From positions 5,079 to 69,078 of the forward strand of contig CAMTOJ010000012.1 in NCBI GenBank assembly GCA_947074145.1: 64,000 bases of DNA, read 5' to 3'. Shown in pieces: positions 49,992 through 64,000 of the stretch. The position numbers and the translations under genes were made by a program. Under the pieces are notes generated by a model that saw only the letters and a program-made list of their open reading frames with translations, did not search any database and had not been told where the DNA came from. Positions within the stretch are counted from its first letter, which is position 1. Each line of letters opens with the position of its first letter. Source of the stretch: an uncultured Bacteroidales bacterium (GTDB lineage Bacteria > Bacteroidota > Bacteroidia > Bacteroidales > JAUNSR01).

Positions 49992-50405
49992 ATGATTTTT
50001 CAAACAGAATTCTCGCTTAAAGCTCGCACTCGTGGTTTTCATCTTATAACAGATGAAATCTTAAGAAAAATAGAAAAGTTTCCCGCAACAGGTATCGTTA
50101 ATATATTTATTAAGCACAGCTCTGCTGCTCTTTCAATCAATGAAAATGCCGATCCTTCAGTAAGAGAAGATATGGAGGCTATCTTCAATCGTCTGATTAA
50201 GGAACGCGAACCATACTACCGACATAATTACGAGGGAGACGACGATATGCCGGCACATGCCAAAACATCGATTATCGGTCCATCAATCTCTATCCCTATT
50301 ACTAATCATAAATTAAACATGGGTATTTGGCAAGGAATATATCTATGTGAGTTCCGTGATTATGGAGGTGCCCGAAAAATTGTGATTACAGTAATGGGTG
50401 AATAA
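49992..50405 (+). CDS. yjbQ: YjbQ/UPF0047 family protein
   Basis: HSSAALSINENADPSVREDM, EGDDDMPAHAK, GIWQGIYLCEFR. Confidence 0.9.
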   Translation: MIFQTEFSLKARTRGFHLITDEILRKIEKFPATGIVNIFIKHSSAALSINENADPSVREDMEAIFNRLIKEREPYYRHNYEGDDDMPAHAKTSIIGPSISIPITNHKLNMGIWQGIYLCEFRDYGGARKIVITVMGE

Positions 50406-50411
50406 AATTAT

Positions 50412-50465
50412 TAAAAAGTAAAAAAGGATCTTTCCCATACAAGAAAGATCCTTTTTTACTTTTTA
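50412..50465. terminator. Bidirectional terminator ending the B12 operon and yjbQ
   Basis: Perfect 23-bp arms TAAAAAGTAAAAAAGGATCTTTC / GAAAGATCCTTTTTTACTTTTTA. Confidence 0.85.
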
Positions 50466-50473
50466 TTCTAAAT

Positions 50474-53400
50474 TTATTTGAAAACTTTAATCGTTTTGTT
50501 TCCTACTTTAATGAAATAAATCCCATGTTCAATATTTATTGTCTCAATTCTATTTTGTCCGCTATAAATTTGTTGACTAATTACCAATTCTCCGCTTAAA
50601 CTATAGATATAAATCATTGTCGTTTCATGACTATTTATAAATATATAATCTTTGAAAGGATTAGGATAAGCGCTTAAATTTAGCTCAACATCATCTGTTC
50701 CGGTAATTGTTGATTCGGTATATTTTACAAAAAGATTAGAGTCTTTTTCAACTTCATAAATTTCTTCTCCATCTATCGATTCTAACCAAACAGCCATATA
50801 TCCATCAATATTCATCACAGGAAGAACTCCATTTGTAAAAATTGTAGAAGATTCTTGAATCAAATTATCAGAATAATCCACCTTAAAAACCTTCTCACCT
50901 TTTAATACAGGATACTTTTCATTATTTAAGTCCTGACCGAAAGCTTCACCAAGTTTCCATGCAATTTCCCCTAATTCAAGAGTTTCATTATTTACGATTG
51001 TCTGCTTATCTTCACTATCATCCCCATATCCTGTTTCCGATTTAATACTATAACAGTTCTCATTCACAGAAATAGATATATTACCGTTTATTGCATTTCC
51101 GATGTAAGTCTGACTATTCGTAATAATATTACCTATATTCAAAGCATTCTGAATTGACCCATCAGCTGATGTATTAGATGATATGCCTGCAACATAATTT
51201 GTATTACCTTTAATATTTCCTGTATTTATAACATTCGAAATTTTGGTAGCTGCAGCACTACCAACTATACCCCCAACATTATTAGAAGAACTTGTTATAT
51301 TTCCGCTATTTGAAGCGATATCAATAATACTTGTTGTTCCTGTCTGTATTTGCCCGGCAATACCTCCTATTGTTGACGAAGTAGCTGTTATATTTCCCTT
51401 GTTATGGCAATTGATAATTGTAGTATTATTATTTATATATCCGAATAACCCGGCTGTATATTGAGCTCCTGAAACATTCACTTCATTAATACAATTTTCA
51501 AATTTTGTTGCACCGTTTACATAACCTACAAGTCCGGCTGTATAATTCTTAGTATTAATAATATCTCCTTCAACTGTTATATTCTTTATATTTCCTTCAT
51601 TCATATAACCGAACAAAGCCTGATAAGTAGCATTTGCATTAATATATAATCCTTCAATTCTGTATCCGAAGCCATCAAATGTTCCACCGTAACGATTCGA
51701 AGAAGTACTATTACCAATCGGTGTCCATTCAAAATTCCCCAGATCAATATCTGAAGTAAGAATTGCGCAAGCCAAGCGATTTCCACTATTCACATGAATT
51801 GCAAACCATGCAAGCTCACTTGCTTTTGAAATTTTATAGTAATCAACCAGTCCATTATAAATACCACCTGTTTCATCAGACTCTTCCTGCGAAACAATCA
51901 TAGGTTCAGAGATAGATATTCCATCCCATAGATTTTCATCACCGGGTTTCAAATCTATTTTAAAGCTCTGCACTTCCTGACCATCTGATAATACATAAAA
52001 ACTATTTCGGTAAATACTATATCCATCACTTTTTACATAAACATCATACTTCCCATATTGAACAATAGATTGAAAATTATCATCAATCTCAATCTCTTCT
52101 CCATCTTTATTTTTCACAATAAACTCGGCTCCGGCCGGAACACCTTCAAAAACAACTTTGAAATATTTTGTTGTAACAACACTAATTGAGATATCCGGTA
52201 AAGCACCAAAATAATTATGACGTGAAAGAGCTGTAAAATTAGCTCCAATTCCATGTAAGGGATTCACCTCTCTATGCGCACCAAATTCTGAACCATATCC
52301 TTTCATTTGAAGTGCTCCTTTTTTCAAATCAATTGTTTTCTCAACATTCCACTCTTTTTCAACCTTTGATTTAATAATCTGTATTTCAGGAGAACCTGCA
52401 AATTTATATTGGCTCGAGCTTGAAATCAGAGATGAGCCATTTGGTGTATCATTATAAACAATGGATGTTGACATATTATATATTCCTGCCAGTTTATTTG
52501 CAGGACTGAATAAACCATAAAACTGCACCTGATACTCATCTCCCGGCTGAAGGGTAAATCCGGGATTTGAAACATTCTCTATTTCATATTTGACCGGTTT
52601 TGCTGTTGCCACCTGATATTCTGATGCTCCTGTTTCTGATGTAAGTTTTATTATGTTTCGCCCCAAAGTCAATAAGACAGTATAACTACCATCTGCATTT
52701 TGTTCTATATTTTTGAACCCTTCATATTTAGAAATATTGACATCCATTTGAGGATTTGCAATACTTACATTAGATACACCCTCGGGTGTAAATGTATATT
52801 CATATCCGTTAAGTTCACTCAGATAATAGAACACATCATGCTCTGAATCAATAGAAAGATTAGTATCCGGCACCCTATTATCTTGAGGTATAAACATATT
52901 TCTTTTTATTGATTCTTCATTATCTTGATCAACAGTCAACACAAATGTACCTGTATTCTCTGGCCATATGGCGCTCCATAAATTACCTCCATAAAAAGAT
53001 GCAGGTATTTCTGTTGTTGTTGAATTGTAAATCTGAAGGTTAATAGCATCATAAGTAACCTGCACTATTACGCTTCCCTTTCCTTTTGCCGTAATTAACC
53101 CATTCTTATCAATCTCTACTATATCACTACATGGATCTCCATTCATATCTATTATAGTATAATGATAATCGGGCTCAATAAAATAGTTACCGACAGTATT
53201 ATTTGTCAATTGCCAGCTTCGTAAATTCAACAATTGATAACTGTCCCCCTTTTTCATCTTCAATTCACCCTCCCTATTGACATTCAAAAGAATATCCGCA
53301 ACATTTGTAGCGGTATTAGATGTTACATCATAATCTATAAATTTAGGAGTTCTAAGATTCAGCATCTCTTCACTAATTACCATTGGTGATATATTCGTAG

Positions 53401-54178
53401 TCATTGTAAAAATTCCACCATTAGTTAATTTTCCCGGCTGAGACACCTTGAAATTATATGTACAAGCTGACCCAAGAGTAAAAATATACTCCTTTTTATT
53501 ATCTTTTATAATCGAATCCTTTGGTGAAATTTCAGTGAAAGGAGCATAATGCATACTACCTGATTTCAACCCTACAAACAAGTGTGCCTCTGTTGGCACT
53601 GTTATGGAATATTCTCGTTCCATTGGTATAACGAAACCTGCATTTAAACTTGTAGCTGTTACTGTATTACAATTATTGAAAGAACTCATATATCCTTCCT
53701 TAACTTTCTCTTCGCTTTGATCGGATGTTATTCTAAAACTATCCCCAAGGTTAATCAAAAAAGTTTCTCTTCCGGCTGTTGTTGACTCACCTGTTGTGAT
53801 AACTCGAACCTTCCCCTCATTGCTATTTGCATTAATTGTGAGAAAATAATCCTGATTCATTATCCACCCGCTATTAGATATCCAAGTAGTGATTGTACTA
53901 ATACTGAAAGTCTGTGAAGACTCTTCCGTTATTTCTATCTCCAAAGTACCATTAGAAACTCCATTTGTATTAAACCCCGTAACAATATACTCTCCTGGTT
54001 CTGTTTCAAAATTATAACTATATGTAACAGCAGAGCCTACCTCTACTTTTTCATTTGTAGTCTTATTAATCAGCTCCATTGTCCGACTGATTGAATTCAT
54101 CTTTATCGTGACATCGACAGCCAGCATATTTATCGTATTTATAACTACGATAAATATGGCTAAGTAAAATTTTCTCAT
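50474..54178 (-). CDS. Large T9SS-secreted protein with unknown N-terminal region, GLUG-type beta-helix and type A CTD
   Basis: Signal peptide without lipobox; LTSDIDLG..WTPIG...GTFDG, GGIVG repeats; CTD AYPNPF...IYSLSG...GIYFIK...KVFK. Confidence 0.8.
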   Translation of the reverse strand: MRKFYLAIFIVVINTINMLAVDVTIKMNSISRTMELINKTTNEKVEVGSAVTYSYNFETEPGEYIVTGFNTNGVSNGTLEIEITEESSQTFSISTITTWISNSGWIMNQDYFLTINANSNEGKVRVITTGESTTAGRETFLINLGDSFRITSDQSEEKVKEGYMSSFNNCNTVTATSLNAGFVIPMEREYSITVPTEAHLFVGLKSGSMHYAPFTEISPKDSIIKDNKKEYIFTLGSACTYNFKVSQPGKLTNGGIFTMTTNISPMVISEEMLNLRTPKFIDYDVTSNTATNVADILLNVNREGELKMKKGDSYQLLNLRSWQLTNNTVGNYFIEPDYHYTIIDMNGDPCSDIVEIDKNGLITAKGKGSVIVQVTYDAINLQIYNSTTTEIPASFYGGNLWSAIWPENTGTFVLTVDQDNEESIKRNMFIPQDNRVPDTNLSIDSEHDVFYYLSELNGYEYTFTPEGVSNVSIANPQMDVNISKYEGFKNIEQNADGSYTVLLTLGRNIIKLTSETGASEYQVATAKPVKYEIENVSNPGFTLQPGDEYQVQFYGLFSPANKLAGIYNMSTSIVYNDTPNGSSLISSSSQYKFAGSPEIQIIKSKVEKEWNVEKTIDLKKGALQMKGYGSEFGAHREVNPLHGIGANFTALSRHNYFGALPDISISVVTTKYFKVVFEGVPAGAEFIVKNKDGEEIEIDDNFQSIVQYGKYDVYVKSDGYSIYRNSFYVLSDGQEVQSFKIDLKPGDENLWDGISISEPMIVSQEESDETGGIYNGLVDYYKISKASELAWFAIHVNSGNRLACAILTSDIDLGNFEWTPIGNSTSSNRYGGTFDGFGYRIEGLYINANATYQALFGYMNEGNIKNITVEGDIINTKNYTAGLVGYVNGATKFENCINEVNVSGAQYTAGLFGYINNNTTIINCHNKGNITATSSTIGGIAGQIQTGTTSIIDIASNSGNITSSSNNVGGIVGSAAATKISNVINTGNIKGNTNYVAGISSNTSADGSIQNALNIGNIITNSQTYIGNAINGNISISVNENCYSIKSETGYGDDSEDKQTIVNNETLELGEIAWKLGEAFGQDLNNEKYPVLKGEKVFKVDYSDNLIQESSTIFTNGVLPVMNIDGYMAVWLESIDGEEIYEVEKDSNLFVKYTESTITGTDDVELNLSAYPNPFKDYIFINSHETTMIYIYSLSGELVISQQIYSGQNRIETINIEHGIYFIKVGNKTIKVFK

Positions 54179-54189
54179 TTGCTAAATTC

Positions 54190-55842
54190 TTATTTGATTA
54201 TTGATTTTGTTGTTACACCTATTTTAATGATATAGAACCCACGAGGTAAATCTGAAATATTTATCTCACTCATTCCCTTTTCAAGTTTTTCAGTACGAAT
54301 CACTTTCCCTGAACTTGAATAAATAACCAATTCATCCTCCTGATATTCAGTTTCAATTATAATAGAGTTTGCATCTTTTAGATATTTGAAACTTATTATT
54401 TCTTTATGATTATCGTTTTCCAAATCTGTGATATTAGATGATTGTGTTTTAATATATGCAGCTGTTTTTTCTGATCTGTTTCCTGCATAATCAACAGCTT
54501 CAATCTCTACAAGATATTCTGTACCTGATTCCAAACCTGTTAATGTATACTCGGTAGTAGAAACCCTTTTCTGTTTCTCTCCATTGAGATAGATATTATA
54601 CTCTTTTACTCCGAAATTATCAGAAGATACATCCCATGTTAAAGTAATCGTGTATAAAGAAGTTTCACCTTCAAGGTTCATTGGCTTAGTTGGAGCTGTA
54701 ATATCTGTTGTGTTTATAGTTATAGATGCTCTATCAGATATCTCTCCATCGATTGCTATTGCCTCAATTCCCAACAGATATTCAGTAAATGGTTTAAGAT
54801 CTTCTATTAAATATTCGGTTACATTTTCAACTCTCATTAATAATTCTTCATTCACATAAATGTTATAACCCGATATTACTATATCAGAAACAGCTTCATT
54901 CCATGAAAAAAGGATATTAGATTCTGAAGCCTCTGCTATTAGCCCCGTGGGGCGATTAGGTATAATAGATTGTTGAACCTCTTTTACCTGCAACTTATCC
55001 ATACAAAAATAAACGGCCGTATTAGGTCCAAGCCCGTCAAATTCACTTACATCTGTCGATTCCATTGTAAAGTATATCCCCGTAACTGCACCAAGAGAAG
55101 AAAGATCTACCCATTGCCAATCAGGACTTTGTTTCAATTCACCATCTTTAAACTCGGCAAGAATATGATCAACCTTAATACCTATATCCTTTCCATCCTC
55201 ATTAAATCCGTGAATCGTTAGTTTAAACATATCTCCTTCCTTTTTAAAAGGTGATGCAAACCCGTCACCATAAAGAGTTCCATAATAAGGCCAAGGGTGA
55301 TTACAGATATAAATACCTTGGGGTTTGTACATCTTTCCGTTATTAAATCTAACCTGTAAACAAGGATCGCCACCCATAAACAGTTCCATCCAATAGCCCC
55401 AATTTGCCACCAGGTAAGGAATACCGGCCTGGGCTATTACTTTCCCGTTTTCATCCATCATCACATTCCCCAGTTCATCGGTTTTTATTCCGCCTCCTGC
55501 CATACATCCCCACTGATTGGATATCCATCCATCGGAACTATCAAGCATTCCATAGTTTTTCGTATCTCCACTTGTACAATATGTAAATCCATCCCAGTAA
55601 TAGCCCTCCGAACTGTCTTCTTCACTGAAGCTTCCGGGATTATGTGTTAGCGAAAAAAAATCAAAATCAATTTTTCTGAACTTCTTTGATCCATTATAAG
55701 TTTCAACCCAATGACCTTTATCTTGAAAAACATCAAATTTAACAGGGTTAGTAGGTTTCTGTAAATCAAGTGTGATAATATCATCTGCATTTGCTTTAAA
55801 AAAGAGAGATGCAGCAAAAAGAAAAAGTAATGTTTTTTTCAT
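54190..55842 (-). CDS. DUF4465 (BtuJ-like) protein with two FN3 domains and T9SS CTD
   Basis: YWDGFTY, MAGGG, DWQWVDLSSLG, FTMESTD, YFCMD; FN3 motifs LKPFTEY and LESGTEY...VDYAGNRS; CTD IYSSSG...LPRGFYIIK. Confidence 0.75.
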   Translation of the reverse strand: MKKTLLFLFAASLFFKANADDIITLDLQKPTNPVKFDVFQDKGHWVETYNGSKKFRKIDFDFFSLTHNPGSFSEEDSSEGYYWDGFTYCTSGDTKNYGMLDSSDGWISNQWGCMAGGGIKTDELGNVMMDENGKVIAQAGIPYLVANWGYWMELFMGGDPCLQVRFNNGKMYKPQGIYICNHPWPYYGTLYGDGFASPFKKEGDMFKLTIHGFNEDGKDIGIKVDHILAEFKDGELKQSPDWQWVDLSSLGAVTGIYFTMESTDVSEFDGLGPNTAVYFCMDKLQVKEVQQSIIPNRPTGLIAEASESNILFSWNEAVSDIVISGYNIYVNEELLMRVENVTEYLIEDLKPFTEYLLGIEAIAIDGEISDRASITINTTDITAPTKPMNLEGETSLYTITLTWDVSSDNFGVKEYNIYLNGEKQKRVSTTEYTLTGLESGTEYLVEIEAVDYAGNRSEKTAAYIKTQSSNITDLENDNHKEIISFKYLKDANSIIIETEYQEDELVIYSSSGKVIRTEKLEKGMSEINISDLPRGFYIIKIGVTTKSIIK

Positions 55843-55852
55843 ATTCGTATTA

Positions 55853-57040
55853 TTATTGTTTTATAAATCTTATTATTTCATCTCCCGAAATCAATATATA
55901 GATCCCTTTATTCATAAATCCACACTCGATTTCCGAAGTCCCTGCCATTACATTAGTGTTAATCATCAATAACCCACACGATGAATAAACATAAATATCT
56001 CTTTCTTCAGAAGATGTCAAGATCAATTTATCGGTTACAGAACTTCGTAAAACAGAGATCACCGATCTATTTTTCTCTTCTATTATATTATTTGGTTCTT
56101 TTTTCAAAAGATGCAAATCTTGTGCGCCAACAATTTCGGTTGATGTTTCACCCAACCCTCCACAATATTGATTTACTCCTGTATAAACCTTTATAAAGTG
56201 AACTCCCGGTAATTCTACCGAATCTCCATTTTTATCGACAGCCCATTCAATCTTGAAATTCGATCGTTCGTCAAAATTGGGATGATTATCAGCATATCCC
56301 CAGGCATAAGAATATAATACATAATATGAACCCTCTCCGCTCTCATCAATATAATTGTCAGCCAATTTTGTACCCTCAAATGTTATCTCCTCATCATCAA
56401 TCCAAAGTGGATAATATGATTGATTATGAAAAATATTACGAGCCATATAACCGTTCTTTCCCTGATTTGATTCCCATCGTATATATGTTGTATCATTCAA
56501 AAAAGGATAACTATTATCAGGAGTTTTTATCTTATTCTCATCAGGTTTGTAATAAGTAATCTTATAATTATGAATGGTTTGAGAACTTCTATATTCACTT
56601 CCTGCAAGTTCGTACCATTCATCATCAGGTTTTCCGTTTCCATTGGCATCATAAGAGACCATCACAATCCCCGGTTCGCAACTTCCTCCGCCGGAATGAG
56701 CATCAGCATTCGGATTAGTATTTGCATAAAACGCATTTCCCAATATCTTAAAATCGTATTCCCCTTTTACATTTTCCACCATATGATCGAAACCGAAAGT
56801 GATATAACCGCCATAACCACCCAAAGAAACAATTACACCGGTTTCACCCTCTATCGATTCCTCAGCCTTTAGCCTCATATCATTTTTTGTATCGCCCTGT
56901 TCATACAAAGGAAGTTTATTGACAAACTGCCCCGGAGCAGGCATATACTCATACACTTTATAGATATATGGAGATTGCGAATATGCATCAAAACCAACTC
57001 CACATATCACTAACAACAGACCTCTTGCTAACAATTTCAT
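55853..57040 (-). CDS. BtuH-like B12-binding domain protein with T9SS CTD
   Basis: VYEYMPAPGQFVN, VSLGGYGGYI, EPGIVMVS, WYELAGSE, WGYADN, GETSTE; signal AYS|Q; CTD VYSSCG...KGIYIL...RFIKQ. Confidence 0.75.
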   Translation of the reverse strand: MKLLARGLLLVICGVGFDAYSQSPYIYKVYEYMPAPGQFVNKLPLYEQGDTKNDMRLKAEESIEGETGVIVSLGGYGGYITFGFDHMVENVKGEYDFKILGNAFYANTNPNADAHSGGGSCEPGIVMVSYDANGNGKPDDEWYELAGSEYRSSQTIHNYKITYYKPDENKIKTPDNSYPFLNDTTYIRWESNQGKNGYMARNIFHNQSYYPLWIDDEEITFEGTKLADNYIDESGEGSYYVLYSYAWGYADNHPNFDERSNFKIEWAVDKNGDSVELPGVHFIKVYTGVNQYCGGLGETSTEIVGAQDLHLLKKEPNNIIEEKNRSVISVLRSSVTDKLILTSSEERDIYVYSSCGLLMINTNVMAGTSEIECGFMNKGIYILISGDEIIRFIKQ

Positions 57041-57051
57041 ATTGAATTATT

Positions 57052-58794
57052 TTATAATATTATTTTATAATTATCCGATCCAGCCCTCACTAAATAGCAC
57101 TTTCCTCTATTCAGATTTTTGAAACTATGATCTTCATCAGTTATCAGTCTTTCTATAAGATTTCCTGAGAGGTCATAAAGAGATATCTCAACTGGCGAAC
57201 ATATTCCTTCTATTTTGATCTGATTATTAACACCTATAACCCTTATATTCAAATTATTACTCTCATCAATCCCTGTTTCAGAATTAACAATCACATTCAA
57301 CACCTTATCCTCATACTTTCCATTTGAATTAAATCGTACAGTAATAGTGATATTATCTTTTATTAAATCTTCACCGGCAGATAATTTCAACTCATCATTT
57401 TCAATTCTTGCGTTGATTTTCTTATTACTAATGCCCACTATCCTCTTTGTTATAGCTGCATCATTATTATCCTTATCTTTTGCCATCGAGGAAAGATCAA
57501 TGGAAACCTCCTCATTTGTCGATAAGAAAACCTGGTTAAAATCATCAATTTCAGGAGAATGGATATCCGGAAAAATAAATAATGAAGGAAACCAGTATCT
57601 CTTTATCGGCTCATATTGTTTAAGCTTGTTCCCTTCATTATCGAGCTGATAGAAAAAATATGATTGATTGACATTATCTATAAATAGCGAAGCATAAATC
57701 TTATCATCATACGGATTAATTCTTATGGCACATCCTAAGAAATAGCGACTCTCCTTACTACTATCATAAATCGTTGTAAATGTTTCGGTATCTATATCAT
57801 ACATAAACATTGTCGATGTTGTAAACCAGCTCCATTTGTTAGAGTTATAGGTGAAATACAATCTATTTTGATTAAATGATGCACATAGCGAACCCGCACT
57901 CCAGGCATACCATGACTGATTAATACCATACTCTTGAGGCATCTCTATGATCTTTGTTTCAAGAGTTTTTGGATCGATTTTTAATAATTGATCCCCCTGC
58001 CACATCTCTCCCGTAGATCCGAATACTCCATAAGGAAAATTCTGATACGACATATTCGAATTTCTACCTACCCAGATACATCCATCCTTACTTTGCGTCA
58101 TTGTACTGAAACAACCCTCTATTATAGTTTCTATTTTATCTTTTTCAGGATTTATTACAAGCACGCCTTTATCCTGCTGAATAGCGAAAACATAATCATG
58201 GCTACGAATCATCATTCCTATCTGATTACGGTATAAAGGACCCAATCCGTCAGATTTATCTTCCTTTCCTGTTACTAAAGGATTTTCCGAACCTTCAATC
58301 CTTCCTTTTATCTCATACGAATTAAGATCCATAATAAAGATCCCATTGGATGTACCCAGATAACCCTTATCCTCTCTTACCCCCACAAAGCTCCTGCCAT
58401 CAGCAGCCGATTTACCATTGAGTTCATATATCACAGGTATAGTTTTCTTAATTTTCATAGTTGACGCATCTGCGACAACTATTCTGCCACCTGTCAGTTT
58501 TCCCTCTGCTTTATCCTGATCCTGCTTGGAAATGATATAAATATTATCTCCATATATAGCTCCATATTGTGCAGTACAACCTAATGACAGATTTCCATTA
58601 TCATTATTATTCTGTACTATCAGATAATCGAATTCACTTGTTTGGGTATTAAGAAAATTGATTGTACTGTTATTATTTCCAAACCGATCTTCGTTCAAAA
58701 CAAAAACTCCCGTTTCATATTTTAACTGCGCTTCGACATTAGATAAACCGGTTACAGCTATCAATGACCATATCAATAATTTTTCTAATCTCAT
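57052..58794 (-). CDS. DUF5074/BtuG-like beta-propeller protein with Ig-like domain and T9SS CTD
   Basis: GVFVLNED, LGCT.Q...IYIISKQ, YWFPS; signal VEA|Q; CTD LYDLSG...GKCYLVR...KIIL. Confidence 0.7.
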   Translation of the reverse strand: MRLEKLLIWSLIAVTGLSNVEAQLKYETGVFVLNEDRFGNNNSTINFLNTQTSEFDYLIVQNNNDNGNLSLGCTAQYGAIYGDNIYIISKQDQDKAEGKLTGGRIVVADASTMKIKKTIPVIYELNGKSAADGRSFVGVREDKGYLGTSNGIFIMDLNSYEIKGRIEGSENPLVTGKEDKSDGLGPLYRNQIGMMIRSHDYVFAIQQDKGVLVINPEKDKIETIIEGCFSTMTQSKDGCIWVGRNSNMSYQNFPYGVFGSTGEMWQGDQLLKIDPKTLETKIIEMPQEYGINQSWYAWSAGSLCASFNQNRLYFTYNSNKWSWFTTSTMFMYDIDTETFTTIYDSSKESRYFLGCAIRINPYDDKIYASLFIDNVNQSYFFYQLDNEGNKLKQYEPIKRYWFPSLFIFPDIHSPEIDDFNQVFLSTNEEVSIDLSSMAKDKDNNDAAITKRIVGISNKKINARIENDELKLSAGEDLIKDNITITVRFNSNGKYEDKVLNVIVNSETGIDESNNLNIRVIGVNNQIKIEGICSPVEISLYDLSGNLIERLITDEDHSFKNLNRGKCYLVRAGSDNYKIIL

Positions 58795-58798
58795 TTCT

Positions 58799-60037
58799 TT
58801 AAAGAATTGGTATATAATTTTTAAAATCCTCTACATGCAGATCTTCCGCTCTTGACAATTCGGTAGATGTTTCACCTAACCAGCCACATTGTTGATTTAC
58901 ACCGGTATAAACTCTTATAAAATCTACTCCCGGCAACCTTACTTTATTTCCTTTATCATCTACTGCCCAATCTATCTTGAAACTGCTTTTGTTTTCTATA
59001 TCATTCGGATGATTATCTACATATCCCCAATCATAAGCATACTGAACATAAAATGATCCGTTTCCACTCTTATCCACATAATTATTGGCAAGACGTGTTC
59101 CCTTGAAAGTAAGTTCATTATTTGTTACCCATTTTGGGTAATAATCCTGGAGATGAAAACTGTTTTTTACAATATATCCCTGCTCATTCATATTGCTTAT
59201 CCATCTTACATATGTGGTATCGATGAAAGGGGAATTAGGCTGCGGTGTTGCCGTTTTTTCTATATCCGGTCTGTAATATTTAATAGTGTAATCATACTGT
59301 GTCTCCTCTTTATAAAACTCACTTCCCGCCAATTCATACCACTCATCATCTGCGATACCATTCCCATTTACATCAAGCGAAACCATCACAATCCCCGGCT
59401 CCGAACTTCCTGCACTTTCTGATGCATTAGGATTAGGATTTGCAGCAGCATAGAAAGCATTTCCTAAAATCTTAAAATCATATTCTCCCTCTACATTTAC
59501 CACGGTGTGATCAAATCCAAAAGTGATATAACCTCCATAACCTCCAAGAGAAACCAATATATCGTTGGTTCCGGATATGCTCTCTTCCGCTTTTTTTATC
59601 ATATCAGATTCCGTATCTCCTGTCTCGTAAAAAGGAAGAGAATTGACAAATTGTCCCGGTGCCGGGCAATACTCATAAACCTTTGTTATATATCTGCTAT
59701 AAGCAACTTGCTCTTCCCAAACCACAAAAAGAATATCACATTCATATGGATTCATATCATCTATGATTCTCATTTTTACAGTATATTCTCCCGGACGGGC
59801 AGACAGAAATATAAAATCACGTTTACCGGATATTATTGAATCTTTACCCTCTATATCTTTCATGCTCCATTCATATACACCGTCGAATTCAGGTTTTACA
59901 ATCACCTTCTTCATCCTCTCAACAACATAAATATCATCCACACCTATGTTTATCATAGATATTTCACTACCGGTACAACCGATTAAAAAATAGCCGATTA
60001 TACAAGACAAATAATATATTAATCCTCTTCTTACCAT
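58799..60037 (-). CDS. btuH: BtuH-like surface lipoprotein (PKD-like plus B12-binding domain)
   Basis: Lipobox LIG|C; VYEYCPAPGQFVN, SLGGYGGYI, EPGIVMVS, WYELAGSE, GWLGETSTE; start placed at the ATG at 60037, which overlaps the btuG stop. Confidence 0.75.
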   Translation of the reverse strand: MVRRGLIYYLSCIIGYFLIGCTGSEISMINIGVDDIYVVERMKKVIVKPEFDGVYEWSMKDIEGKDSIISGKRDFIFLSARPGEYTVKMRIIDDMNPYECDILFVVWEEQVAYSRYITKVYEYCPAPGQFVNSLPFYETGDTESDMIKKAEESISGTNDILVSLGGYGGYITFGFDHTVVNVEGEYDFKILGNAFYAAANPNPNASESAGSSEPGIVMVSLDVNGNGIADDEWYELAGSEFYKEETQYDYTIKYYRPDIEKTATPQPNSPFIDTTYVRWISNMNEQGYIVKNSFHLQDYYPKWVTNNELTFKGTRLANNYVDKSGNGSFYVQYAYDWGYVDNHPNDIENKSSFKIDWAVDDKGNKVRLPGVDFIRVYTGVNQQCGWLGETSTELSRAEDLHVEDFKNYIPIL

Positions 60038-61218
60038 AGAAAGCACATATGAGCGGGAATGTCGCCTGTACGCACACTCCATTTTTTAATACCGTTTCTG
60101 TTGTAGCAATGCAGCTGACCGCTGGAAACATAATTTTTGGCATCAGTAACATAAATATCTCCATTATGCGGATCTATCTGTAATCCGTAAGGGATCACAA
60201 TATTCTTATCTGTTCCGTCTTTTATGAAATTATCTGTTATAAGCTCTTTGGTCCTTATATCTATTATGCCATACGAAACATGGTTTTTCTCTGTTGTGCT
60301 GTTAAACTCAACACTATAGAAATAGAGTGAATCACCTGATATCACCATATCACTACAAGCAATATTAAGAGTATCTGTAACAACCATTTCCCTTGAATTA
60401 GCACTCTTGCGTTCAAGAACAAAAAGATTTGATGCCACATCCTTATAGTTACCCCTTGATGAAACCCATAACCTTCCATAGTTATCTTTCTTTATTCTGT
60501 GAAGGTTTAGCCCTACCGGTATTTGTTGTATTTGCTTCATGGCATACATCTCAACCACAGAAATTGTATAATCGTAATCTGGCACTCTATATCCTCCTGA
60601 ATTTGCCACATATATATATTCACCGATTATCTCAAGTTCATCGGGCTGATATCCAACAGTTGCCCTGTCAACCACTGTCAAAGAGGTGGTATCAATCTTA
60701 AACACTGCCCCCAATTGAGCATCAGGATCTATCGCGACAGGACCAACATAAGATGAGACATAAGCATATCCCTTTGAAAATTTTATATACCTGCAATTCG
60801 GTATATCTATCTGACCTAATCTTTCACATGTTTTTGCATCCATTACCTCAACCTTATGTGAACAATTGATTACTGCGTATAGCTTATTTCCATATATGGC
60901 AATATCATTGCCCACATCGCCAAGTTCCATTATTACATTGGGATTCATTTCAGAATAGATATTTCTTACATACAGCATAGATCTGAAATCAACAAAATCA
61001 ATTGTCGATTTATTACTACCCATATTACCCTCATTCAAAAGATACATTCTCAAAGGAGCATTATCATCAAAGATTTCTCCCGGTAATATCTCATATTCTG
61101 TCGGTACAACAAGCTCTATTTCACGACATCCGATCAGACACATAAGCACAAAGAAAATCGCCATTCCCGGGTAAATCTTCTGTGTGCTTTCTTTCGGATA
61201 TTTAATATTTACAGACAT
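60031..61218 (-). CDS. btuG: BtuG-like YncE/DUF5074 beta-propeller surface lipoprotein
   Basis: Lipobox LIG|C; YLLNEGNMGSN, LGDVGND, IPNCRYI, YVANSGG, YVTDAKNYVSSG, GDIP; directly after btuB. Confidence 0.85.
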   Translation of the reverse strand: MSVNIKYPKESTQKIYPGMAIFFVLMCLIGCREIELVVPTEYEILPGEIFDDNAPLRMYLLNEGNMGSNKSTIDFVDFRSMLYVRNIYSEMNPNVIMELGDVGNDIAIYGNKLYAVINCSHKVEVMDAKTCERLGQIDIPNCRYIKFSKGYAYVSSYVGPVAIDPDAQLGAVFKIDTTSLTVVDRATVGYQPDELEIIGEYIYVANSGGYRVPDYDYTISVVEMYAMKQIQQIPVGLNLHRIKKDNYGRLWVSSRGNYKDVASNLFVLERKSANSREMVVTDTLNIACSDMVISGDSLYFYSVEFNSTTEKNHVSYGIIDIRTKELITDNFIKDGTDKNIVIPYGLQIDPHNGDIYVTDAKNYVSSGQLHCYNRNGIKKWSVRTGDIPAHMCFLW

Positions 61219-61261
61219 GAACTTATTAGAACTATTTATTTAAAAAATATTTGATATTGAA

Positions 61262-63253
61262 CTAAAGAGTGATAGATATTACGAAACGATAGTTTCGTTT
61301 TGGCATCGGATAATTGAGAATTACATCATAATCCTGACCCAAAAGATTGTTTATCTCTGCCGAAAATCTTATTTCCGATCTTTTAAATTTTAGATTCTTT
61401 GAGACTGAAACGTCATGAGTGTACCATGGCTGAGTATGATTGTATCTGATATTTTCCTGTTGATTATATCTCTCACCCACATAGATAAAGCTGTAATTAA
61501 GTCCCCAACTTTTCCAGCTCAACATCCCTATTGCCGAGCCACTATGCCATGGTATGTAAGGTATCTGATGCTTATAATAGTTGTCCGCCTCATAGGTTAT
61601 ATCAATAGCCTCCTGATAAGTATATTGCATCTTTCCTGTCAATGACAGATTGTGATTAAAATCAAAAGTCATCATCATAGTAGCATCTATACCTCTGATA
61701 TCCACCTTGCCAAGATTAAGCATTGTCCATCTGAACTGTTGTCCTTTAGGATAAGCCACTATCTTATCCTTAACAAGATTATAATATGCATCAACTCCTA
61801 TATGAAAATTAGAAAGGAAACAGTTTTCTCTATGTTTATCATATAGTATTCCGAAATTATACTGATCTGCAATTTCTGGATTCAGATAAGCATTTCCCAT
61901 ATCTGTATAATAAAGGTCATTGAAGGTTGGCATTCTGAATGAGCGTTTATAAAATGCTCGCATCACCAGATCATATCTATTAAGAGGTTGATATGACATA
62001 AAAATGGCAGGTGTAAGTTTCTTTCTTATAGGAGATGATTCTCTTTCACGTGATTCCTCATTTATTACACAAGCAAGAATACTTGCTTGCGTTTTAAACT
62101 TATCTGCAATGGTAAAGGCTGTTGCAAGCGACCCCCATTGACTAAGCCTAGTAACATCGGCAAATTCCGATAACCCATTCCATTGAACATCATATGCAAA
62201 CGATAGATCCCAATTCTTTACAATAGAATATTTATTGGCAAATGATCCGTAAACCTCTTTTTGTTTATAAATATTATCTACACTAATCAGTTTATTGTCA
62301 TTATTCACATAGTGAGTAAAGTCATTCGCATATTTCATATTCAACTTATATGAATATCCAAAATCAAACTCCTTTGTTAGCGAACACTGAATGAATGAAT
62401 TCTTATCCCAAAGGCGTTCACCTCGACGCCAAACATTATTGACTATTGCCCCGGGGATACCTCTTTCCGATTCATAATTATAAACATATATTTTCCAACT
62501 ACCGGCGTGGATATAACCATTAAGACTCCCCTCCATCCTTACAGCATCAATTTCTCCGTTATTTCTAACCGCAGTGGTATCATAAGCTATCTCACCATAA
62601 GGAGTGACACGCTGATATCTGAATTTATATTTTCCGCTCGAACTTATCCATTCGCAATTGAATGTAGCAACCAAATTATCGTTTATCTTATAATCAAAAA
62701 GAACGGAAGGATTCAAAAGATCAAATGATCCGAACCTTACTCCGGCTTTAAGATTAGCGCTCTTGCCATCCTTAAATCGTGGTCGTCGTGTGGTCAGATA
62801 TATACTTCCGGCCGAACCAAACTCTTTAGCGGATTGAAATATTTCACTTTTCTGACCATTATAAAGCGAAATCTCCTCTATATTATCAAGCGAGAATTTA
62901 CCTAAATCTATCTGACCGTTTTGTGCATTACCAAGTTGGATCCCATTATAAAAGACTCCCATATGATTGGTACCCATACTACGGATATTTACAGTCTTAA
63001 GACCGCCAACCCCTCCATAGTCCTTTATCTGAACTCCGGCAAAATATCTTATAGCATCTGAAACGGAAAAGCTATTGAGACGTTGAAGTTCTTTCCCTTC
63101 AAGCTTTTGAGCCGGTATAACTTCTGTATATTTTTTTGCCACCACTTCAACTTCCTTAAGATGCAATATGGTATCGTTCAGGTTTTGTGAAAAAACATGA
63201 GAATGAAAAAAAAGAGATAAAGAGATGAAAAATACCGTTAAAAGCCGTTTCAT
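61262..63253 (-). CDS. btuB: TonB-dependent cobalamin receptor
   Basis: GVQIKDYGGVGGLKTVNIRS, QNGQIDLG, FRMPTFNDLYY, NYPMPKRNYR; first gene below a cobalamin riboswitch; start at 63253 or 63271. Confidence 0.9.
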   Translation of the reverse strand: MKRLLTVFFISLSLFFHSHVFSQNLNDTILHLKEVEVVAKKYTEVIPAQKLEGKELQRLNSFSVSDAIRYFAGVQIKDYGGVGGLKTVNIRSMGTNHMGVFYNGIQLGNAQNGQIDLGKFSLDNIEEISLYNGQKSEIFQSAKEFGSAGSIYLTTRRPRFKDGKSANLKAGVRFGSFDLLNPSVLFDYKINDNLVATFNCEWISSSGKYKFRYQRVTPYGEIAYDTTAVRNNGEIDAVRMEGSLNGYIHAGSWKIYVYNYESERGIPGAIVNNVWRRGERLWDKNSFIQCSLTKEFDFGYSYKLNMKYANDFTHYVNNDNKLISVDNIYKQKEVYGSFANKYSIVKNWDLSFAYDVQWNGLSEFADVTRLSQWGSLATAFTIADKFKTQASILACVINEESRERESSPIRKKLTPAIFMSYQPLNRYDLVMRAFYKRSFRMPTFNDLYYTDMGNAYLNPEIADQYNFGILYDKHRENCFLSNFHIGVDAYYNLVKDKIVAYPKGQQFRWTMLNLGKVDIRGIDATMMMTFDFNHNLSLTGKMQYTYQEAIDITYEADNYYKHQIPYIPWHSGSAIGMLSWKSWGLNYSFIYVGERYNQQENIRYNHTQPWYTHDVSVSKNLKFKRSEIRFSAEINNLLGQDYDVILNYPMPKRNYRFVISITL

Positions 63254-63472
63254 ATTTTTTATAAAATTCAATAACAGCTTTCAGGGTATAAGAACAGGTA
63301 GGTTCTTATTGAAAACATCAGGACATATACGAAATTTGTGAAAAGTACGTAATACTTCACACTAATTCATATAGCAAGACATTCGTATAAAAAATTGGGA
63401 TAAACAGAATCAGGTGTTCAGACCATTCATGTTTGTCTCAAGCTCTATTCCTCGAAAGCTTTAAACTATAGA

Positions 63473-63655
63473 TGTTCTGGCAGGTATCCTGACTTACTTC
63501 ATCTTTTGAACTACCTTCCCAATCCTTTTCGAATCAGTGGTTAAGAGCTTTGTCAAAAGACTGTTTTGAAGCTTACAGTAGCGGGTCTGTTCAGGATTTT
63601 CACCTGATTCCCTTTTAAACGATTTTCTAAGAGTAAGAATCTCGTCACCAAAACT
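63473..63655 (-). ncRNA. Cobalamin riboswitch
   Basis: Minus strand TTTGGT...AAAAGGGAATCAGGTGAAAATCCTGAACAGACCCGCTACTGTAA...CCACTG...GGGAAGG...AAGTCAGGATACCTGCC (B12 box). Confidence 0.93.
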
Positions 63656-63659
63656 TTTG

Positions 63660-63667
63660 CAAAAATA
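63660..63667 (-). promoter_or_regulatory. -7 promoter box for the riboswitch-btu transcript
   Basis: TATTTTTG on the minus strand immediately 5' of the aptamer. Confidence 0.65.
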
Positions 63668-63739: not shown

Positions 63740-64000
63740 TAGTCAATCCTTAAAAAAGCAATATTAAAAATTAGATCCATGATAGATTACTCTATGATTA
63801 AATAAGATTTTGTTATCTATTATGGATTTTAAAATTATAAGCAGCGGCAGCTAACATTAAGTTCACAGCATCTCCAACCATACCCTTATAGAAGTTACGG
63901 CCAAGTCTATAATCTCTCTTTAAATGTCCTATTGTTGGTTCTATTCCGGCTCTTTTATAGAAGATTTTATGTTTTTTTCTTTTTTGATAAATACTGTCTT
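63740..64000 (-). mobile_element. Right end of an IS5-family element; transposase C-terminus at 63813-63998, running off the window
   Basis: Minus-strand translation DSIYQKRKKHKIFYKRAGIEPTIGHLKRDYRLGRNFYKGMVGDAVNLMLAAAAYNFK carries the IS5 R..IEP.IGHLK signature; putative terminal IR TTTTTAAGGATTGACTA near 63740-63757. Confidence 0.8.

Follow-up and report, generated by a model that had tools for sequence, protein, structure and literature searches.

A cobalamin-riboswitch operon of an uncultured Bacteroidales bacterium encodes homologues of B12-binding proteins with putative type IX secretion tails

The structure of one operon in an uncultured Bacteroidales bacterium raised a question: can the extracellular layer of a vitamin B12 uptake system be built from proteins that leave the cell through the type IX secretion system (T9SS)? 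The operon lies in a 64,000-nucleotide stretch of contig CAMTOJ010000012.1 (positions 5,079 to 69,078, forward strand; assembly GCA_947074145.1), hereafter the window. An earlier note on this DNA, made from the sequence alone, had proposed that B12-binding proteins are re-routed here to the T9SS. Our analysis started from sequence features, homologies, T9SS genes and conserved gene order, all of which can be observed directly. It leads us to regard the locus as probably an operon for corrinoid uptake, under riboswitch control, in a T9SS-positive Bacteroidales bacterium; its BtuB-BtuG importer would be surrounded by B12-binder homologues that the T9SS displays as an outer layer. On our best reading, which draws on analogy, this layer would do by means of C-terminal sorting domains (CTDs) what Bacteroides thetaiotaomicron does by lipidation. 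In the available text of the relevant papers (the September 2026 review PMC13616437, PMC13398666, PMC12751083, PMC8941943 and bioRxiv 10.1101/2025.07.01.662609), BtuG, BtuH, BtuJ, BtuK and BtuL are all described as lipoproteins. What appears to be new here is that a btuB-btuG operon headed by a riboswitch encodes T9SS-tailed proteins homologous to known B12 binders, a design that recurs in many gut Bacteroidales. The features of the operon, in order of transcription, are as follows.

63462 to 63667, minus strand: cobalamin riboswitch aptamer (RF00174, 107 bits, E 8.1e-26, full model 1-189).
61262 to 63271, minus strand: g1, TonB-dependent transporter (TBDT) of 669 aa, with plug and barrel.
60031 to 61218, minus strand: g2, BtuG propeller lipoprotein of 395 aa (homology to PDB 8blw_B; lipobox LIGC).
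58799 to 60082 (probable start 60037), minus strand: g3, BtuH-type lipoprotein, 427 aa for the open reading frame (ORF) as listed (homology to g5; lipobox LIGC).
57052 to 58794, minus strand: g4, BtuK-like propeller with a weak type A CTD, 580 aa (DUF5074; BtuK1 profile match).
55853 to 57040, minus strand: g5, BtuH domain with a type A CTD, 395 aa (homology to 8blw_B and 7biz_A).
54190 to 55842, minus strand: g6, DUF4465/BtuJ-type jelly-roll with two FN3 domains and a type A CTD, 550 aa (PF14717, fn3, PF18962, TIGR04183).
50474 to 54178, minus strand: g7, 1234-aa protein with a type A CTD (PF18962, TIGR04183), from a family that has no Pfam model.
50415 to 50462, both strands: bidirectional intrinsic terminator (20-bp stem, T-run on either strand).

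Do the first three genes encode an import core? The g1 protein has a plug (Plug, 52.3 bits) and a barrel (TonB_dep_Rec_b-barrel, 108.8 bits) behind a signal peptidase I (SPI)-like leader ending ...VFS/Q. Its best NCBIfam match, TIGR01779 (TonB-B12), scored 94.8 against a cut-off of 599.7, and NF007926 scored 57 against 836; both are equivalog models that fit the proteobacterial BtuB. We assign g1 to BtuB because of its context, that is, the riboswitch and the neighbouring BtuG. That neighbour, g2, begins 43 nt after g1, has the lipobox LIGC, scored 62.3 bits with DUF5074, and matched PDB 8blw_B over residues 17-359, the BtuG part of BtuGH, with an E of 2.6e-40 (8ptf and 8ptd followed at about 1e-39). 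Behind its own lipobox, g3 consists of an N-terminal beta domain of about 95 aa and a BtuH B12-binding domain; it lacks a CTD. It is a paralogue of g5 (64% identity over 294 aa), keeps the tryptophan at BtuH2 position 577 and probably binds B12. The identities that had been proposed for btuB, btuG and btuH are thus upheld.

We then asked what the next three genes encode. In g5, the BtuH B12-binding domain (residues 20-313) lies between a leader ending ...AYS/Q and a type A CTD (about 325-395). It matched 8blw_B with an E of 7.8e-83, in agreement with the earlier description of a BtuH-like domain, and BtuH2 (7biz_A) with an E of 5.2e-46. Relative to g3, g5 has about 80 additional C-terminal residues and a plain leader in which residue 13 is a cysteine, in a poor lipobox context as read by eye. 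The ligand contacts of BtuH2 were taken from the available text of PMC8941943; the 7biz chain index plus 100 gives the residue number, which was checked on an adjacent Tyr-Trp pair. Six of the eight contacts are identical in g5 (Q333, N399, F401, H476, Y510 and L578), and two are changed (W511 to Tyr, W577 to Gly). B12 binding by g5 is therefore judged probable from the alignment. BtuH2 (BT_1956, 7BIZ) and the BtuH domain of BtuGH (BT_1490, 8BLW chain B) of B. thetaiotaomicron share this globular domain with g3 and g5, with most contacts kept, and likewise belong to a riboswitch-led btuB-btuG operon. The lipobox and PKD domains of these proteins are replaced in g5 by an SPI-type leader and a T9SS CTD, whereas g3 retains the lipoprotein form.

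The g6 protein comprises a DUF4465 jelly-roll at residues 81-283 (PF14717, 100.4 bits; cut-off 25), two FN3 domains at about 291-470 (fn3, 61.1 bits) and a type A CTD at 495-548, which confirms the DUF4465/BtuJ-like domain on an FN3 stalk that had been described. It matched the DUF4465 entries 4jqr, 9qpm, 9fct_B and 9hmu in the PDB. The HI-loop tyrosine motif reads NTAVYF in g6, compared with NTPAY/GTPAYF in the available text of PMC13398666. B12 binding by g6 is likely. The PF14717 jelly-roll, the HI-loop tyrosine and the B12-uptake context are shared with BtuJ1 and BtuJ2 (9FCT, 9I2L) and with other DUF4465 structures (9HMU, 9QPM, 4JQR). Unlike BtuJ1 and BtuJ2, g6 is no lipoprotein; it has a length of 550 aa and carries a T9SS CTD after its two FN3 domains. 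The published DUF4465 survey labels such non-lipoprotein members 'periplasmic targeting', and its available text does not mention the T9SS.

The g4 protein has a leader ending ...VEA/Q, a seven-blade propeller (residues 29-409; DUF5074, 381.7 bits), a linker domain and a weak type A CTD (about 515-580). It had been called BtuG-like. A profile of g4 and 53 homologues, however, matched BtuK1 (9s6c) with an E of 1.3e-15 and the BtuG-type 8ptf with an E of only 0.005; g4 is therefore BtuK-like, and the earlier label has to be replaced. The g4-family propeller resembles BtuK1 (BT_1486, PDB 9S6C) down to the N-terminal B12 loop motif NE-W--H, but g4 differs from BtuK1 in lacking a PKD domain and a lipobox and in possessing a CTD. 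According to the available description of BtuK1, the B12-contacting loop residues are Glu23, Trp25 and His28. The corresponding loop reads NEGWFGH in BtuK1 and NEDRFGN in g4 (at about 58684-58704): the glutamate is kept, the tryptophan is replaced by arginine (R37) and the histidine by asparagine (N40). The orthologue in a genome of the same genus keeps the tryptophan. The g4 loop thus appears degraded, and B12 binding by g4 itself is doubtful. The operon had also been said to encode a "duplicate set" of binders; that description fails, as only BtuH has a lipoprotein twin here.

Are these distal proteins equipped for type IX secretion? The CTDs of g7 (residues 1171-1232; 50477-50671) and g6 exceeded both curated cut-offs, with PF18962 scores of 38.7-45.6 and 27.8-31.5 bits and TIGR04183 scores of 41.4 and 30.8-32.4 bits, respectively. 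Those of g4 and g5 did not, and they were examined with a CTD model derived from this genome. The model was built from the 49 genomic CTDs that exceeded the TIGR04183 cut-off, each ending no more than 9 residues from the stop; removal of g6, g7 and one duplicate left 46. The resulting hidden Markov model was run on the C-terminal 90 aa of 3916 ORFs (>=100 aa) of the genome, with these results.

g7: 58.6 bits, E 9.5e-17, rank 16.
g6: 43.9 bits, E 3.8e-12, rank 39.
g5: 30.5 bits, E 5.6e-8, rank 54.
g4: 22.9 bits, E 1.3e-5, rank 63.
g2 and g3 (lipoproteins): no match (E above 10), no rank.

Homologues pointed in the same direction. C-terminal CTD matches were found in 114 of the 120 nearest g4 homologues, about 20 of which also have a precomputed PF18962 match. 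One g4 homologue carries the database name 'Por secretion system C-terminal sorting domain-containing protein'; annotators have thus noticed the CTD. All nine BtuH ORFs from relatives' loci have a C-terminal CTD match (E 8e-8 to 9.8e-15), and the BtuK-like proteins of these loci reach 6.4e-14. We regard all four distal proteins as type A CTD proteins. The earlier claim that each combines an SPI leader with a T9SS CTD stands by curated thresholds for g6 and g7; for g4 and g5, whose membership is less secure, it is supported by the genome's own model and by homologues.

The genome encodes a T9SS, as the earlier note had asked to be checked. In searches for these components, SprA (2763 bits), PorU (1137), PorM/GldM (527), PorV (521) and PorQ (367) all exceeded their cut-offs, and an 802-aa PorZ-like ORF combines a PorZ-type propeller with a weak CTD. 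The SprA model found no match in 14 control genomes, B. thetaiotaomicron included. In Porphyromonas, CTDs are cleaved by PorU, the cargo is attached to anionic lipopolysaccharide (A-LPS), and pyroglutamate is formed on an N-terminal glutamine. Type A cargo of Porphyromonas, Tannerella and Prevotella includes the A-LPS-anchored gingipains and the haem-binding HBP35. The proteins studied here resemble such cargo in combining a Sec leader with a C-terminal beta-sandwich sorting domain in a genome with PorU, PorV, PorQ and a PorZ-like protein; they, too, would capture a nutrient at the cell surface and on vesicles. They differ in being homologues of B12 binders and in being encoded with a TonB-dependent transporter under a riboswitch, and A-LPS attachment is suggested for them by analogy.

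Is this design peculiar to one genome? Matches to g5 were found in 14 of 41 relatives, this genome counted, and 11 regions were fetched and annotated with phmmer and the own-genome CTD model. Nine relatives' loci contained a BtuH ORF (eight picked through their g5 matches, plus L042). In all nine the BtuH bears a CTD; five also have a BtuK-like gene with a CTD, and two a DUF4465 gene with a CTD (L034 and L041). In L042, the DUF4465 domain is part of a g7-like fusion. The same-genus locus L034 reads TBDT, BtuG, BtuH (lipoprotein), BtuK-like (CTD), BtuH (CTD) and DUF4465 (CTD), with g7 missing. Three loci have TBDT, BtuG and BtuH (CTD) followed by a BtuK-like CTD protein of 1300-1490 aa. Another reads TBDT, BtuG, BtuH (CTD), BtuK-like (CTD), and yet another DUF4465 (CTD), BtuH (CTD), TBDT, BtuG. 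An Rfam cobalamin riboswitch heads the cluster in seven of nine loci searched, namely five of seven BtuH loci and both g7-type loci of a further genome, G161; the contigs of the two negative loci are truncated. Giant relatives of this kind also occur in btuB-btuG operons: the propellers just mentioned lie within the 1300-1490-aa CTD proteins of L036, L037 and L039, and Muribaculaceae (L060-L063) encode BtuH-containing CTD proteins of 1438-1443 aa.

In a set of 80 named loci retrieved with g5, the order TBDT, BtuG, BtuH (CTD), DUF4465 (CTD), g7-like (CTD) recurs in a Paludibacter sp., in a Paludibacteraceae metagenome-assembled genome and on a 'Bacteroidetes bacterium' contig. The Bacteroides species in this set have lipoprotein BtuGH fusions and lipoprotein DUF4465. 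The ORFs were classified as follows; the classes are regular-expression (regex) classes, and the loci are biased towards g5-like proteins.

BtuH, 83 ORFs: CTD by model 12; short CTD-like tail 21; lipoprotein-like 23; unclassified 26; open at contig end 1.
DUF4465, 50 ORFs: CTD by model 6; short CTD-like tail 21; lipoprotein-like 16; unclassified 7; open at contig end 0.
g7-like, 15 ORFs: CTD by model 5; short CTD-like tail 7; lipoprotein-like 0; unclassified 0; open at contig end 3.

The short tails look like shortened type A CTDs: when 50 unique tails were compared with the genome's CTD alignment (hhalign), the probability was 93.7% and the E value 2e-7 over 31 columns, with an 11-residue deletion. 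In Prevotella-type homologues (L125-L204 and many of L055-L123), the tail, of about 30-40 aa, corresponds in the alignment to the final strands of a type A CTD.

A tree of 68 BtuH domains, made by a quick method and rooted at the midpoint, places g5 in a 35-row clade (SH-aLRT 98) with 19 tailed, 16 unclassified and no lipoprotein members. The lipoprotein g3 falls in a separate clade (97), together with 409-aa proteins of Muribaculaceae whose lipoboxes were recognized by eye. The two BtuH copies would thus represent old paralogue lines, as opposed to a recent re-routing, and the tailed design appears to be the usual state of an old clade, in an operon type found in several Bacteroidales families. 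The proposal that known B12-binding folds have been re-routed to the T9SS therefore survives in part: homologues of BtuH, DUF4465/BtuJ and BtuK type do occur with SPI leaders and CTDs, but the change was not local to this operon, given the age of the clade (98% support) and its spread over several families.

The last gene, g7, had been left as an unknown. That remains apt insofar as no Pfam or NCBIfam model exceeded its cut-off on the g7 module or its parts, the CTD being the sole match; it is incomplete in that g7 belongs to a large family linked to btuG. Behind an SPI-like leader, g7 has an all-beta module of about 740 aa (residues 20-760; 51899-54121) and a GLUG-like beta-helix (about 770-1150; Glug 18.1 bits against a cut-off of 20.5). 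Residues 20-760 yielded 838 homologues at E<=1e-3 among 7995 scored. Among the 120 homologues listed, PF14717 (DUF4465) occurs in 23 and a CTD by the own-genome model in 39, and most share the mature N-terminus directly after the SPI-like leader. An alignment of 51 family members has a mean column identity of 37% and invariant W-P-E-N, E-H-D and H-R clusters. The predicted fold of the module is all-beta and multi-domain (pLDDT 86.7, pTM 0.81). A wide structure search gave a best Z of 7.9, with Big_2-like (271-399), FN3-like (400-510) and transthyretin/CnaB-like (651-730) regions. Residues 20-295 folded alone (pLDDT 93.5) reached a best Z of 6.5 and Foldseek TM <= 0.28. For the whole module, Foldseek returned only chains of Ig or MG domains (TM <= 0.16), and the ESM Atlas gave scores <= 0.83 with no useful lead. 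A complex prediction for the g7 core (alignment residues 1-650) and the DUF4465 domain of g6 scored 0.00 against a mark of 0.32, which is evidence neither way. Identity with BtuL was considered and is unlikely; in its available description, BtuL is a lipoprotein with a receptor-L-domain-like repeat.

Where does the g7 family occur? An even sampling of the order showed it in 3 of 301 genomes, this one counted; its distribution is therefore patchy. Genome G161 has one g7-type copy after a riboswitch, TBDT and BtuG, and another directly first after a riboswitch, followed by DUF4465. We also collected 80 metagenome loci, picked solely by likeness to the g7 module. In 71 of these, btuG lies upstream on the same strand (as the adjacent gene in 66), and 59 of the 71 have a TBDT as well. 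Eight loci have neither btuG nor a TBDT, and in five of them the upstream sequence is shorter than 1500 bp. In 43 loci the TBDT is complete and upstream sequence is available, and a riboswitch lies upstream in at least 34 of them: 26 were recognized by regex, and all eight regex-negative loci sent to Rfam were positive. The regex counts are therefore lower bounds, as diverged copies were missed. Fusions of the g7-type protein with DUF4465 occur in 32 of the 80 loci; they retain module residues 1-648 and thereby define the conserved core. Of 84 g7-type ORFs in these loci, 76 are complete at the 3' end; 59 have a CTD or a short CTD-like tail, and several of the remaining 17 resemble these by eye. 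Four metagenome operons (L152, L167, L168 and L171) have two tandem g7-type genes, the first of which gives a combined BtuG and g7-type match.

The g7-type protein is without a counterpart among the named Btu proteins of B. thetaiotaomicron. To judge from its sequence and neighbours, g7 would most likely serve as a capture or hand-off platform. A broader proposal is offered tentatively, with somewhat less than even confidence: that the g7-type core (about 650-1050 aa, a beta-sandwich with or without the beta-helix) belongs, as a new component displayed by the T9SS, to the core of the cobamide uptake machinery of Prevotella-type, Paludibacteraceae and related gut Bacteroidales, where it captures corrinoids or their carriers, works directly with BtuG-BtuB and is often fused to BtuJ, and that T9SS display, not lipidation, is the main way in which these lineages build an extracellular B12 relay.

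Several observations weigh against the reading of the operon as an importer with a T9SS-displayed, B12-binding outer layer, and they are considered here together with the rival explanations they favor. One such explanation holds that the four CTD proteins share the regulation of B12 uptake without being mainly corrinoid binders. They would serve instead in attachment to B12 producers or host material, in vesicle formation (as BtuL does in B. thetaiotaomicron) or in some other surface role, with only g6, and perhaps g5, binding B12. We consider this unlikely. In its favor, two BtuK1 contact residues are lost in g4: the W/H pair is present in 104 of its 120 nearest homologues, and the R/N combination in g4 alone. 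Moreover, BtuK2, a natural variant of the BtuK1 B12 loop, does not bind B12 (available text of PMC13616437), and BtuL and BtuK2 are both described in the accessible accounts as btu-operon proteins without B12 binding. In g5, the Trp577 equivalent is lost, whereas it is kept in all eight CTD-type BtuH ORFs (of 12) in which our pattern located the position; set against this loss are the six BtuH2 contacts that g5 preserves. For g6, such a role is opposed by the finding that every DUF4465 member assayed in PMC13398666, in the text available, bound B12. No functional or ligand-binding fold was found for g7 in the structure searches with the whole module and with residues 20-295, only generic beta-sandwich matches with Z<8 of the adhesin, pilin or S-layer kind, plus the GLUG-like beta-helix; the frequent DUF4465 fusions nevertheless tie g7-type proteins to corrinoid handling.

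Does the riboswitch govern all seven genes? The aptamer, whose 107 bits compare with a gathering score of 31.5, is the only Rfam match in the window and precedes g1 by about 190 nt; TAnnTTTG, read at the 5' edge of the match (63660-63667), is taken to be a Bacteroides-type -7 box. The successive intergenic gaps from g1 to g7 measure 43, -52, 4, 11, 10 and 11 nt. The -52 is an artefact of the first-ATG start of g3: its 16th codon is a methionine directly before the signal peptide with the lipobox LIGC, and a start there leaves a 7-nt overlap with g2. The real start is probably this methionine, at 60037. Relatives seem to "conserve" the 15-codon extension (60038-60082, minus strand), but this is due solely to its overlap, in a different frame, with the 3' end of btuG. 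The terminator hairpin lies 12 nt past the g7 stop and is shared with a convergent UPF0047 gene (49992-50405, plus strand; 131 bits). These results agree with the earlier picture of seven tightly spaced, same-strand genes between a riboswitch and one terminator. A second rival would nonetheless make g4-g7, or a subset of them, a transcription unit of its own that is not repressed by B12, the look of an operon being due to close packing only. Internal promoters have been described in B. thetaiotaomicron btu operons (available text of PMC12751083), so co-transcription is not certain here, and promoter-like hexamers are numerous inside the region; their number (89) is nonetheless no excess over shuffled sequence (72 +/- 10). 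The gaps of 4-11 nt before the distal genes, the same gene order after riboswitches in other genomes and the g7-type gene that comes first after a riboswitch in G161 all argue for a single unit. So does the lack of a strong internal terminator: the other minus-strand terminator-like matches (53599, 51756, 56222 and 52141) have 5-8-bp stems and lie within coding sequence. We hold an independent unit to be decidedly improbable.

The remaining reservations concern export. With the curated models, g4 scored 13.7 bits against 27 (PF18962) and g5 12.8 bits against 23 (TIGR04183), and neither is among the 57 whole-genome TIGR04183 matches at E <= 0.01, 49 of which exceed the cut-off; their CTD assignment comes from the model that we built ourselves, plus the homologues. 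Leader types were assigned by eye and regex. SprA was found in five of five examined genomes with CTD forms and also in five of five other genomes with shorter or split BtuH matches, whose BtuH forms are unclassified, and thus does not discriminate between forms; since lipoprotein forms also occur in T9SS-positive genomes, the presence of a T9SS does not dictate the export route. Anchored and released products, finally, cannot be told apart by sequence. That the C-termini of g4 and g5 are not working signals, so that both proteins are periplasmic or take another route and only g6 and g7 are T9SS cargo, is nevertheless very improbable: it would suit their sub-threshold scores and the cysteine in the g5 leader, but it sits poorly with their E values against the genome's own CTDs, to which g2 and g3 are silent, with the far better scores of their orthologues and with the conserved length of the C-terminal extension.

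Returning to the uptake operon with its T9SS-displayed outer layer, we envisage the following sequence, from the regulation of the distal genes through export and anchoring to binding and transfer. When intracellular B12 is low, the unliganded riboswitch would permit all seven genes to be expressed together as a single unit. BtuB, the transporter, with BtuG as its lid would form the outer-membrane import core, with lipid-anchored BtuH (g3) alongside. The products of g4-g7 would cross the inner membrane by Sec and be cut by signal peptidase I; their type A CTDs would then be recognized and the proteins passed through the SprA translocon to the PorU/PorV/PorQ/PorZ attachment complex. There, the CTD would be removed and the product either released or linked to the A-LPS of cells and vesicles. 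Corrinoids would be bound extracellularly by the BtuH domain of g5 and by the DUF4465 domain that g6 holds on its two-FN3 stalk, and be passed towards BtuG-BtuB, a role that has been proposed for the lipoproteins BtuH and BtuJ of B. thetaiotaomicron in the text available. The g7 protein, with its beta-sandwich and beta-helix, would most likely act as a capture or hand-off platform; elsewhere, members of its family regularly occupy the third place in btuB-btuG operons.

The operon contains no btuFCD genes, as had been stated. Two other riboswitch-led btuB-btuG loci lie elsewhere in this genome, on contigs C32 (L006) and C5 (L007), which makes the operon one of three uptake systems. One of these two loci has a Peripla_BP_2 (BtuF-like) gene, and the other begins with a gene for a 409-aa protein without a Pfam match; FecCD permeases are encoded on contigs C60 and C48. 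A fourth cobalamin riboswitch (contig C4:63452-63650, L005; 112.8 bits) heads a biotin carboxylase/biotin carrier/carboxyltransferase operon (an acyl-CoA carboxylase) and not a transporter gene, which is unusual for control by B12. The window edge (63813-63998, minus strand), about 145 nt upstream of the riboswitch studied here, encodes the C-terminal 61 aa of a DDE transposase (PF01609, 28.2 bits); a mobile element therefore borders the operon.

Has such a system been described before? The earlier note knew of none that had been characterised, and we likewise found no paper linking the T9SS to B12 binders in full-text literature searches, although supplementary signal-type tables may list non-lipoprotein members. 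The Btu papers that were text-searched contain no relevant mention of T9SS, type IX, secretion or sorting in their available text, and 'type ix secretion' is also absent from that of PMC12751083. The only co-mention of T9SS and DUF5074 was a 'Secretion protein: DUF5074' row in a transcriptome table.

Competition for vitamin B12 shapes gut communities, and the current model of its uptake in Bacteroidota rests almost wholly on lipoproteins of Bacteroides thetaiotaomicron, a member of a genus without a T9SS. If B12-binder homologues are indeed displayed by the T9SS in Prevotella-type, Paludibacteraceae, Muribaculaceae and related lineages, surveys limited to lipoproteins would miscount B12 binders, and the "periplasmic" filing of non-lipoproteins in the published DUF4465 survey would be affected. 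T9SS mutants would be expected to show defects in B12 uptake. The large, very common and unnamed g7-type family would then be a candidate new player in cobamide capture.

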